Source of the DNA: a virus
Length of the DNA: 32,150 bases
Reading direction: 5' to 3' (one strand)
UHGV virus genome: UHGV-0070112
The position numbers and the translations under genes were made by a program. The first letter of the stretch is position 1; each line of letters begins with the position of its first letter. This document shows positions 6,657 to 23,828 of the stretch, piece after piece. Under the pieces are notes generated by a model. It was not told the origin of the DNA, did not search any database, and worked only from the letters and a program-made list of their open reading frames with translations.

Positions 6657-7242
6657 CGCGCGGCCGCGACGTTAGAACCATGGGTATTTTAACTACATAA
6701 GGTTATGAAGATCTTCGGAAAAAATGAGATGATGGTTTGTTTGGTTATTTAATGAGCGAAAACAGCCAAAATCCCCATGCAGGGATGATAAAAAACGTCA
6801 TTGTGTAGACGACTGCAGGCTGTAATTTATTCAAATTAAATTTCCTTAGTAGGGCTCTATGTGTCCTACAACATCCAACCTACCTAAAGACATTGATTGA
6901 TACAAGAGGAAAAACACTACTTTTTTATCAAATTGGGATCGGTTTTGTTTCCGATGGCGCGGCATTATACGGAGATAACCCAAGTTATCAACAGAAATTG
7001 CCAGCATATGTACGCAAAATGTGCTGTTTCTAATTTTGAGATGGTTGTGGTGCCGGGTGCCTCCCGGTGAGCATGCCCCAACAGACATTACTCGCGCGGT
7101 ATTCACAGGGCTTTCGCTCTATTAGTTGGACGCCCCTCCGCATAGGGGGATTCACCACACGGATAATTTAGGATGTAGTCATAGGCGGCGTCAATAACTG
7201 ACACTCTGTCAAAGGCACCATTACGATGCCTTTTGCACAGTG

Positions 7243-7977: not shown

Positions 7978-8373
7978 TGGTTGATCCGCTTACTGATACG
8001 GAGCGACCAACCTAAGTTGTCGCAGATTCAAATTGTGGCCCTGCCTTTAAGTCACTTTGCGCGCAGCTGGGACATGTAGTTTTCGCATCGTGATCGGGAT
8101 TCGCTTCAGGCGCTGGCCCCGCAGCCATATAAGTGCCGGTTACGGTTCCGGCCAGGCCTCTTCCTCAACGGGTTATTCTCCATACGGATTTCCGTTTGTT
8201 GGTCGTTCCTGCGATCTCAATTTTCCGGTTACGTTTATCCGGTGGCTTACGCCCGGTTTAGCCCTAAGGTAAGGGATTTGGTTGTGGTGGCAGGCGCCCA
8301 TCTCCTGCTTAACGTCAATCAACGCTTGCACATCGCTACGTTATGGGCCGGGATCAACCGATATTTTCGCTCG

Positions 8374-8476
8374 CCACAACGGAAAGAGCACTGGTAATCT
8401 GTAGCGGGTATTTACTCGCGCACGCCGTTTTGACGTGCGGCCCATTTCAGCATGGTCAATGATCTTACCTGTTGTG
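8374..8476 (-). other. Paired-motif element, late-leader copy
   Basis: Minus strand reads CACAACAGGTAAGATCATTG ... ~80 nt ... CCAGTGCTCTTTCCGTTGTGG; the two arms are imperfect reverse complements. A second copy is at 23361-23475 on the plus strand. No credible ORF in 7978-8538. Confidence 0.3.
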
Positions 8477-22327: not shown

Positions 22328-22358
22328 CGACACCAAGCTAAGAAAAGTTTGGTGTTTT
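22328..22358 (+). terminator. Intrinsic terminator after cI
   Basis: Stem ACACCAA / TTGGTGT with 12-nt loop, followed by TTTTT. Confidence 0.5.
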
Positions 22359-22369
22359 TTCTTGACGAC

Positions 22370-22398
22370 AAAACTAAGTTAAGTTAGATTTTCATCTA
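22370..22398 (+). promoter_or_regulatory. Candidate PL promoter with embedded left operator
   Basis: TTGACG, 17-bp spacer, TAGATT. The spacer holds CTAAGttaaGTTAG, the same half-site family as the cro-cI operators. Confidence 0.4.
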
Positions 22399-22728: not shown

Positions 22729-23360
22729 TTACCACAGGTATCTTCGGGAGGGGTTGCGAAGCTGGATTGACCACCAGCAACAGAAACTCACCCGACATAC
22801 AGCAGCCGTTTAACCCACGGCGTCGGGGGTCCAGTAGACCTGGATTAATACTGTAGGGGTTGTGCCGGTTGGTCGCCGGCGCCCCGCCCGAAGATACCTG
22901 AACGAACATGGCGAAGCCGACAGCGTTGAAGGCGATTTTCTCGGTTTGCGCGCTAAACAATAGCGGGGGTGAAATCGGGGCGGAGAAGCAGAATCCGCGA
23001 TGTCGGGACTTGATACTTCCGGCCATACCAACAAGCCGAATGATCGCGTAACGATCCTTTGCATCTGCCCCGGCGAGGTGGCGCCGCCGGACCGGGGTAG
23101 ATGAATCGTACACAACATGAAAGCGCATTCCATCTTCATCCGTCGTGGGGACTGGTTTGTAACTGAAGGAGTGCGCTTCCAGTTGTGAACGGCAATATTC
23201 ACGACCGTTGTATGGCACATGCAGCGTTAGCAGCCCGGATGGTTCCCTTGAAGTTCCATGCGCTATCCGGACAACTGGAATGTGCAAGCCAAGTGTTTCA
23301 GGCACGACGTGCGCCCCACCAGCGCGGCGAAAAGGTGTGACGCCCGGGAAGAGTCCGGGA

Positions 23361-23475
23361 CACAACAGGTAAGAGCATTCCCGCCACACGAGGCTGAAAC
23401 CCAATCGCCATGTGGATGCGCCGAAAAGCTACGACGGGGCGTTGGTAGAAGATCGGAGTGCTCTCTCCGTTGTGG
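23361..23475 (+). other. Paired-motif element, early-left copy
   Basis: CACAACAGGTAAGAGCATT ... ~77 nt ... GGAGTGCTCTCTCCGTTGTGG on the plus strand; same arm sequences as 8374-8476. Inside a GC-rich ORF-poor stretch. Confidence 0.3.
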
Positions 23476-23616
23476 TAATTGCGGCTATGCGCACGTGGCG
23501 AGCCAACCCGTTCATGGAATGCGTTTCCGGGCAGTGTACGTCGCCGGTTATGGCTTAACCCGGCAGGTGGAGGCACCACCGCCACAACCTAGTTAACTGT
23601 GCTGTGTGTAGTCTTG

Positions 23617-23687
23617 GCGGTTATCCAGTTTTCCACTATCCAAAGGAGGAAGAGGATAACGTTCTGATGGATAACCGCCCTTTTTAC
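23617..23687 (+). promoter_or_regulatory. 11-bp perfect inverted repeat enclosing the RBS and start of a small ORF
   Basis: GGCGGTTATCC (23617-23627) and GGATAACCGCC (23669-23679) bracket AAGGAGGAAGAGGA and the ATG at 23667; followed by CTTTTTAC. Confidence 0.4.
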
Positions 23688-23828
23688 ACAATACACAAGA
23701 GCATCACCGGGCGACGGGCTCATTACCCAATCCACCCGGGCGGATTTGCAGCCGCAGGTGCTCTTCTGTGTTGTGTACGGAGAAATTCCCGGCGGTGGCA
23801 GCCGCCTTTCGAGAGGGTAAAACCATGA
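23667..23828 (+). CDS. Hypothetical 53-aa Arg-rich protein
   Basis: MDNRPFYTIHKSITGRRAHYPIHPGGFAAAGALLCCVRRNSRRWQPPFERVKP. GAGGA RBS 10 nt upstream; stop overlaps the next gene's ATG (ATGA). Could be spurious in GC-rich DNA. Confidence 0.3.
   Translation: MDNRPFYTIHKSITGRRAHYPIHPGGFAAAGALLCCVRRNSRRWQPPFERVKP

Follow-up and report, generated by a model that had tools for sequence, protein, structure and literature searches.

A strand-specific phage RNA hairpin with near-invariant arms and variable tips, probably a site for RNase III processing

Four copies of an RNA hairpin were found in a lambdoid prophage of the Klebsiella/Salmonella ST64B-phiNP type, a 32,150-nt stretch of DNA that we call the window. 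We propose that this hairpin is probably an RNase III processing element of polycistronic phage transcripts that also carry tRNAs, DicF-like sRNAs and STnc100-like modules. Its arms are almost invariant across phages, and the 40-80 nt between them are unrelated from phage to phage. On this reading one RNA module would unite the late RNase III sites of lambda, the DicF maturation step of the Qin prophage and an unexplained non-coding stretch of the P1 ban operon. The module occurs in hundreds of phage and prophage sequences, is absent from Rfam and RefSeq annotation, and suggests a testable rule by which phage polycistronic transcripts would be divided into tRNA, sRNA and mRNA units. Recognizing it would also improve annotation, since spurious ORFs overlap the elements.

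Copies in the window and covariation of the stem

An earlier note, made from the DNA letters alone, had described a pair of arms at two places in the window, and our pattern search found both arms exact at each. The 5′ motif CACAACAGGTAAGAKCATT (19 nt) lies at 8476-8458 on the minus strand and at 23361-23379 on the plus strand, and the 3′ motif AGTGCTCTYTCCGTTGTGG (19 nt) at 8392-8374 (minus) and 23457-23475 (plus), all with 0 mismatches; 0.02 matches per window are expected by chance. These arms delimit copy A (8374-8476, minus strand) and copy B (23361-23475, plus strand). Pairwise alignment of 450 nt around each revealed similarity only in the arms and in the downstream string CCRCCACAACC, so the interiors do differ between copies as described, and we reject a recent segmental duplication because these interiors are unrelated. 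The note's later motif, CCRCCACAACC, is indeed present after both copies (8290-8280, minus; 23579-23589, plus), but the string alone is not above chance; in homologues it is part of a conserved second module.

Two further copies brought the total to four. Copy A alone is on the minus strand; the plus strand has the other three, in the order C, B, D. Copy C (23111-23186, plus strand) was recovered as a 3-mismatch match and is the first of three in the early-left operon; its arms, AAGCGCAUUCC/GGAGUGCGCUU, contain a compensatory change from A-U to C-G. Copy D (23686-23776, plus strand) has divergent arms and was found with a covariance model, R1, which matched 23685-23777 at 19.8 bits (E = 5e-4; copy D lies outside the seed). 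The model took the place of a hexamer hairpin scanner (at most 1 mismatch plus an energy cut-off), which was abandoned because it produced 54 matches in shuffled controls, failed to find copy A and put copy C in the wrong orientation.

The stem is about 20 bp long and consists of CACAAC paired with GUUGUG, a bulged A, GG paired with CC, a U.U mismatch and AAGAGCAUU(G) paired with (C)AGUGCUCUU. The inner helix beyond the U.U mismatch has 9-12 bp, including a conserved U.G pair, and the whole stem closes a highly variable tip of 40-80 nt. The window copies share the features of the R1 family, namely the arm sequences or compensated variants of them, the stem with its bulge, U.U and U.G, and a place on the transcribed strand. 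Folding, which the note had recommended, gave the family stem in the minimum free energy (MFE) structures of all four copies, at −37.1 kcal/mol (z = −3.7) for copy A, −47.9 kcal/mol (z = −4.0) for copy B, z = −4.2 for copy C and −43.7 kcal/mol (z = −5.4) for copy D, whose arms form 19 of the 20 pairs.

Conservation of the pairing was assessed in 81 arm pairs drawn from scans that fixed different parts of the element. Pairing was retained in 87.6% of cells, and 16 of the 20 pairs had changed on both sides. None of 500 shuffles reached any of the five covariation measures, and sliding the partner by 1-3 columns lowered pairing to 40-58%. Pair 22-40 is U.G in 59 of the 81 sequences. Entire helices have been exchanged in a compensatory manner: the whole outer helix in three homologues, L193, L195 and L197 (CGAAAUCU/AGUUUUCG), and the inner helix in L047 (UAGCUCACU/AGUGAGCUA), with compensatory replacement of the inner helix also in copy C and in the copy of the Qin prophage.

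The stem is also strand-specific. With orientation set by an independent downstream marker, the sense arms formed the stabler helix in 92 of 110 homologues (mean advantage over the antisense arms, 3.3 kcal/mol). Fold z-scores of the window copies were −3.7 to −5.4 on the sense strand versus −1.7 (copy A) and −2.3 on the antisense strand. For the window copies that are part of the R1 seed, sense-strand scores were 51-67 bits and antisense scores 23-25, a gap of about 30-40 bits (copy A, 62.2 on minus and 25 on plus; copy B, 67.2 and 23.5; copy C, 51.2 on its sense strand). Where a tRNA gene is found no more than 1 kb away, as for 52 elements, the element and the tRNA always share a strand. Strong covariation together with strand specificity indicates that the element acts as RNA and not as DNA binding sites. 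Between the two readings offered in the earlier note, these data favor the structured RNA, with compensatory changes at 16 of 20 pairs, a conserved U.G and a more stable sense strand, and they speak against a pair of inverted protein-binding sites, the stem being strand-specific and covarying. Pairing is conserved across homologues, and on the sequence evidence a symmetric DNA site is excluded as the primary function.

Three pattern scans of viral contigs returned 57, at least 120 and at least 120 loci, and 169 distinct homologues were analyzed. A 41-nt block that joins the 3′ arm to the first part of the module behind it gave matches in 456 deposited phage genomes, and in 135 of these the match extended over 80% or more of the block; the candidate matches in Pseudomonas and Aeromonas phages cover the block adjoining the hairpin and no more. 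Lambda, P1 and prophages of Klebsiella, Salmonella, Erwinia and Pantoea have nearly the same arms. In a genome collection the inner-arm pattern (20 fixed bases, 596 Gb) matched 36 loci where about 34 were expected, and R1 confirmed 10 of these, 9 from Enterobacterales and one from a MAG labelled Geobacteraceae. Matches in Clostridia, Bacteroides and Acidobacteria were dismissed as chance because the count equals the expectation and R1 does not support them. The Rfam scan that the note had called for gave no family at 8374-8476 or 23361-23475, either at the gathering threshold or at E up to 10, and an identity with STnc100 (RF02076) was rejected on the same grounds. Nothing is annotated under the lambda version of the hairpin among the matches listed in 435 E. 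coli genomes, and the hairpin is unannotated in RefSeq. The unity of the family across lambda, Qin and P1, and its variable cargo, appear to be uncatalogued.

Operons, arrays and the second module

On the minus strand of the window the Q antiterminator gene (12587-12222) and a DNA methylase gene (10083-9034) come first, then a tRNA gene split by an HNH-type ORF, then copy A; a TerB-domain gene (7820-7395), STnc100, two holin genes and an endolysin gene follow in that order. Copy A has the same strand as Q, the holins and the endolysin, so its reported place between Q and the lysis genes is confirmed by gene order. It sits 4 kb downstream of Q, after the methylase gene and the disrupted tRNA, and since terminator-like sites are present between Q and copy A, its membership in the Q-dependent late transcript is only putative. 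An intrinsic terminator predicted from the sequence (7978-7959, minus strand) follows about 400 nt downstream of copy A. The sole STnc100 sRNA of the window (6989-7189, minus strand; 71.6 bits against an Rfam gathering score of 47) lies 1.2 kb downstream of copy A, beyond the TerB-domain gene; it has the ends GUGUGGUGAAU ... CACCACAAC and, judging from these, is a likely relative of the second module.

The other three copies share the strand of the early-left genes, and a pL-like promoter precedes them. A 208-aa plus-strand ORF, taken to be a putative repressor, is followed by a terminator (22329-22356) and directly afterward by the candidate promoter (22362-22390, TTGACG-17-TAGATT), which by its sequence would drive the early-left transcript carrying C, B and D. 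Downstream of it are a 77-aa ORF and then about 1 kb without convincing genes that holds copy C, copy B, a DicF-like sRNA and copy D. The element lies outside coding sequence, and an overlapping 91-aa ORF has no Pfam match. The DicF-like sRNA with its intrinsic terminator (23603-23690, plus strand; UUGGCGGUUAUCCAGUUUU ... AACCGCCCUUUUU) is a weak Rfam DicF match, below the gathering score (16.5 bits, E = 1), and a DicF-like sequence 3′ of the second module is also found in many related loci.

The element occupies corresponding places in three well-known phages. The lambda copy (44787-44862) begins 7 nt past tR′, the terminator of 6S RNA, so that the likeness to the lambda Q-to-S leader, which the note had suggested, was correct. 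Its arms, CACAACAGGTAAGAGCATT ... AGTGCTCTTTCCGTTGTG, are identical to the window consensus. Like copy A, it has Q on one side and the lysis genes on the other, and a GUUGUG ... CACAAC second module comes after it. It differs in a shorter tip (76 nt overall) and in abutting tR′, whereas copy A is far from Q. A terminator directly upstream (within about 15 nt) is a feature of 32 of the 169 elements, that of lambda included. In E. coli K-12, Qin has one copy at 1649173-1649257. This hairpin, CAUAACGCGAAAGCGCAUGG ... CCGUGCGCUUCCGGUUGUGG, is homologous to those of the window and nearest to copy C, and it appears to coincide with the RNase III site of the dicBF operon (Faubladier et al. 1990; PMC10448788). 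The operon is of the same early-left type, and the hairpin precedes dicF by 124 nt, much as copy B precedes the DicF-like sRNA by about 130 nt; however, the Qin tip is unrelated, there is one copy rather than three, and cleavage is known for Qin alone. P1 has four copies in its ban operon, between a dicF-like region, tRNA genes and tciA, which encodes a TerB homolog, and this neighborhood is the same as that of copy A. The copy in the early-left region, which had been called unexpected, is thus matched in the Qin dicB operon (one copy) and the P1 ban operon (four copies); early-left placement is common. We also observed that the TerB-like protein of the window is homologous in position to P1 tciA, which makes the arrangement of tRNA, hairpin and TerB-like gene common to the lambdoid prophage and P1.

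Copies often stand in same-strand arrays of 2-4 with a spacing of 200-300 nt, and in these arrays hairpins alternate with the second module, whose 5′ strand is GUUGUGG(UGAAU) and whose 3′ strand is CCACCACAAC. The 5′ strand overlaps the 3′ arm of the hairpin, GUUGUG being shared. In the window, second modules are predicted after copy A (8280-8380, minus strand; GUUGUGG ... CCACCACAAC as closing helix, from sequence) and after copy B (23469-23589, plus strand; GUUGUGG ... CCGCCACAAC, from sequence and folding). Homologues share the ends of the module that follows copy A. The ends of STnc100 (GUGGUGAAU plus hairpin ... hairpin plus CACCACAAC) are common to second modules, and the STnc100 (RF02076)/PasD prophage sRNAs of Rfam share the neighborhood of the hairpins; the hairpin itself differs from STnc100 in being without an Rfam match. 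In two loci, L042 and L043, the second module is a recognizable tRNA-like RNA with D and T arms, and that of L043 has an Rfam tRNA match.

Folded on its own, the second module forms its closing helix. GUUGUG can pair with the upstream arm of the hairpin or with the downstream CCACAAC, but not with both at once, and in joint folds the hairpin stem prevails in the window and the second module in lambda. The downstream pairing covaries in P1 as well: the shared strand reads GUUGCG there, and both of its partners have changed to fit, to CGUAAC on the upstream side and CCGCAAC on the downstream side. Both pairings may therefore matter, and the stem may represent just one of two functional states.

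A conserved non-coding block is also present at 8215-8135 (minus strand), with the sequence GCAGGAACGACCAACAAACGG...CCGUAUGGAGAA...CCGUUGAGGAAGAGGCCUGGCCGGAACCGUAACCGGCAC. It is nearly unchanged in the P1 ban operon and in the locus L028, and its sequence suggests a third type of module in these arrays.

The case for RNase III and the competing explanations

RNase III substrates are nearly continuous helices of about 20 bp (PMC6212723), and the ~20-bp stem fits the substrate size of the host enzyme. The Qin operon supplies the most direct connection. A 190-nt DicF species, with a 5′ end determined by primer extension, is reported to be lost in a strain lacking RNase III, and the sequence in Fig. 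S1B of the same paper starts in the loop of the Qin hairpin and runs through the 3′ arm (PMC10448788). Counting 190 nt back from the 3′ end of dicF (1649434) leads to approximately 1649245, inside the Qin 3′ arm (1649237-1649257), a position that is good to about 5 nt because it was derived from the reported length. By this arithmetic the published RNase III cut in Qin falls in the homologous hairpin. A second RNase III product is the 72-nt DicF (PMC9438474), which ends at 1649453, within the ~20-bp helix that closes an STnc100-like module on the 3′ side of dicF.

In the lambda late leader, the hairpin arms form the longest stacked, near-continuous helix identified, although the outer helix is not formed in the free MFE fold. 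Processing of the lambda late transcript by RNase III at particular sites was reported by Daniels et al. (1988, Virology 167:568). The RNase III sites of T7, early and late, and the stems of rRNA operons resemble the hairpin in having a ~20-bp helix with a small internal irregularity between transcript units. They have no sequence relation to it, and the rRNA stems enclose kilobases compared with 40-80 nt here.

We envision that the hairpin would be transcribed within long operons (in the window, those of the minus-strand Q-to-lysis region and the plus-strand early-left region of pL type), and that RNase III would cut the stem, splitting the transcript into tRNAs, DicF-type sRNAs, STnc100-like modules and downstream mRNA. 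Each cut would make the 5′ end of the downstream RNA. At copy B this would be the 5′ end of a DicF-like precursor, as in Qin, and at copy A the product would either end at the terminator at 7978-7959 or be a read-through late mRNA toward the lysis genes. For the copies of the window we infer such cutting from these comparisons.

RNase III has loose sequence requirements, so near-invariant arms across phages exceed what cleavage alone demands, and other explanations were weighed. The hairpin might act in cis on transcription, near the start of early-left and late transcripts, as an RNA for processive antitermination of the kind known from HK022, whose put RNA has two stems, lies shortly after pL and pR and works on RNA polymerase. 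We consider this very unlikely. It would account for the elements, lambda's among the 32 of 169, that begin within about 15 nt of an intrinsic terminator, for the presence of window copies in both the early-left and the Q-to-lysis units, and for the boxA-like string UGCUCUUU in the 3′ arm, which we take to be the first 8 nt of rrn boxA. However, the arrays of 2-4 copies at 200-300 nt and the location of copies far from promoters, with copy A 4 kb downstream of Q, do not fit such a role, and in compensated variants the likeness to boxA is gone (copy C has UGCGCUUC and L047 has UGAGCUAC). There is also no boxB-type hairpin 3′ of it at nut spacing, and the Qin copy is a cleavage site according to the literature and coordinate mapping. 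A nut site has boxA and, about 8 nt on, a boxB hairpin with a GNRA-like loop. An identity with the lambda nut site was rejected because UGCUCUUU belongs to the 3′ strand of the stem, does not survive in compensated variants and has no boxB after it.

Even less probable, in our judgment, is a function of the arms at the DNA level, as inverted protein sites or as recombination 'linkers' for cassette swaps, with the RNA structure being incidental. The arm sequence is conserved well beyond the needs of pairing, conserved blocks reach about 40 nt including the ends of neighboring modules, and unrelated tips between identical arms are what cassette exchange would give. Yet a DNA site would be strand-symmetric, and the element is not, for it retains a U.G on the sense strand that would be C.A on the antisense strand; double changes keep the helices while destroying the sequence; and the orientation always follows that of neighboring tRNA genes. 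Recombination at the arms may explain the shuffling of tips but not why the arms exist. The identical arms and adjoining conserved blocks may, by their sequence, serve as homology for such exchange in addition to forming an RNA stem.

Several other identities were dropped. A link to the anti-sRNAs AgvB and AsxR was considered, CACAAC being presumably complementary to the GcvB seed, but neither family matches the window at gathering. In the Sakai Stx2 prophage, AsxR (with a sub-threshold AgvB match) adjoins STnc100 and not a hairpin, and R1 has no match in that prophage. Integron attC sites, REP/BIME elements, retrons and Y-RNAs were set aside as their defining sequence features or neighboring genes are absent.

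Variable tips and adjoining tRNA-like sequences

The 169 elements fall into 84 unrelated tip clusters between nearly constant arms. Some tips have conserved hairpins of their own with compensatory changes, for example those of cluster 10 and of copy A compared with L069. A tRNA T-loop motif is present in 21 of the 169 tips and a hairpin resembling the anticodon stem-loop of initiator tRNA in 17, copy D among them; both counts are 0 in shuffles. The initiator-like motif of copy D is GGGCUCAUUACCC. Its tip and those of 16 related elements (for example L004, L011, L068 and L172 of P1) contain GGGCUCAU(A/U)ACCC, which we take to be the initiator tRNA anticodon stem-loop with three G-C pairs and a CUCAUAA loop. 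The string GGGCUCAUAACCC is exact in four tips, and GGCCUCAUAAGCC is a compensatory variant. The tips of copies A and B have no tRNA-like motif, and neither ARAGORN nor Rfam RF00005 found a tRNA cloverleaf at their coordinates.

This diversity raises the question of whether the tip itself is the functional payload, the stem being a scaffold and the tip being cut out of it, by RNase III or a different nuclease, to yield a stable small RNA such as a tRNA-fragment mimic, another kind of sRNA or a decoy for host defense nucleases that target tRNA. The idea extends the RNase III explanation and is compatible with it; we regard it as rather unlikely. It draws on the unrelated tip clusters between near-constant arms, on the compensatory changes in tip hairpins and on the T-loop and initiator-like motifs that shuffles lack. 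The clustering of elements with phage tRNA genes, and the copies on one P1-like plasmid that adjoin a Thoeris anti-defense gene, would also suit it. On the other hand, a free loop could diverge from lack of constraint and recombination, and copies A and B carry no tRNA-like motif in their tips.

A broader form, which we hold to be unlikely, is that the hairpin is a universal 'expression cassette' of enterobacterial phages from which RNase III frees the tip RNA, with many tips mimicking parts of tRNA. That mimics of the T-arm or the initiator anticodon would then be decoys or inhibitors of host nucleases that target tRNA, or of other tRNA-binding factors, and that identical arms would allow payloads to be swapped, is a speculation we find similarly unlikely. 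The diversity of tips, tRNA-like pieces included, makes the family a possible reservoir of phage small RNAs.

Sequences adjoining the hairpins show further tRNA-like features. The disrupted tRNA gene upstream of copy A (9043-8539, minus strand) matches P1 tRNA-Thr(UGU) in its 5′ half up to the anticodon loop and is interrupted just after that loop by about 410 nt. The insert encodes a 139-aa HNH-type endonuclease (8990-8571) ending in ...CANCHRKVHAG, and the T-arm, acceptor strand and CCA resume at 8566-8538. The insert may be a self-splicing intron, or the tRNA gene may be dead. ARAGORN with default settings reported no tRNA at 9043-8539; with introns allowed it reported c[8539,9043] with a 410-nt intron, labelled Trp, a label that is probably forced. 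Small hairpins lie directly 5′ of the copies, GCUCCACGAAACGGAGC before copy A (8520-8480, minus strand) and CCCGGGAAGAGUCCGGG before copy B (23340-23360, plus strand), and such hairpins with GAAAGA-type loops precede many homologues too. A solitary T-arm-like hairpin, GCCGGUGCGAUUCCGGC, also precedes copy A.

Antisense reading frames overlap many of the elements. In P1, plp and upl (AF234172, 69472-70041; positions 2169-2738 of locus L172) are on the opposite strand and overlap hairpin copies and second modules, and 31 of the 169 hairpins of related loci are inside an antisense ORF of at least 100 aa. Antisense ORFs such as plp and upl may be artifacts of a structured RNA region. Finally, in the P1-like E. 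coli plasmid pEC361_3 (locus L058, 985-3317), five tRNA genes are scattered among the hairpins and second modules, and the array is directly upstream of a gene annotated as Thoeris anti-defense Tad2.
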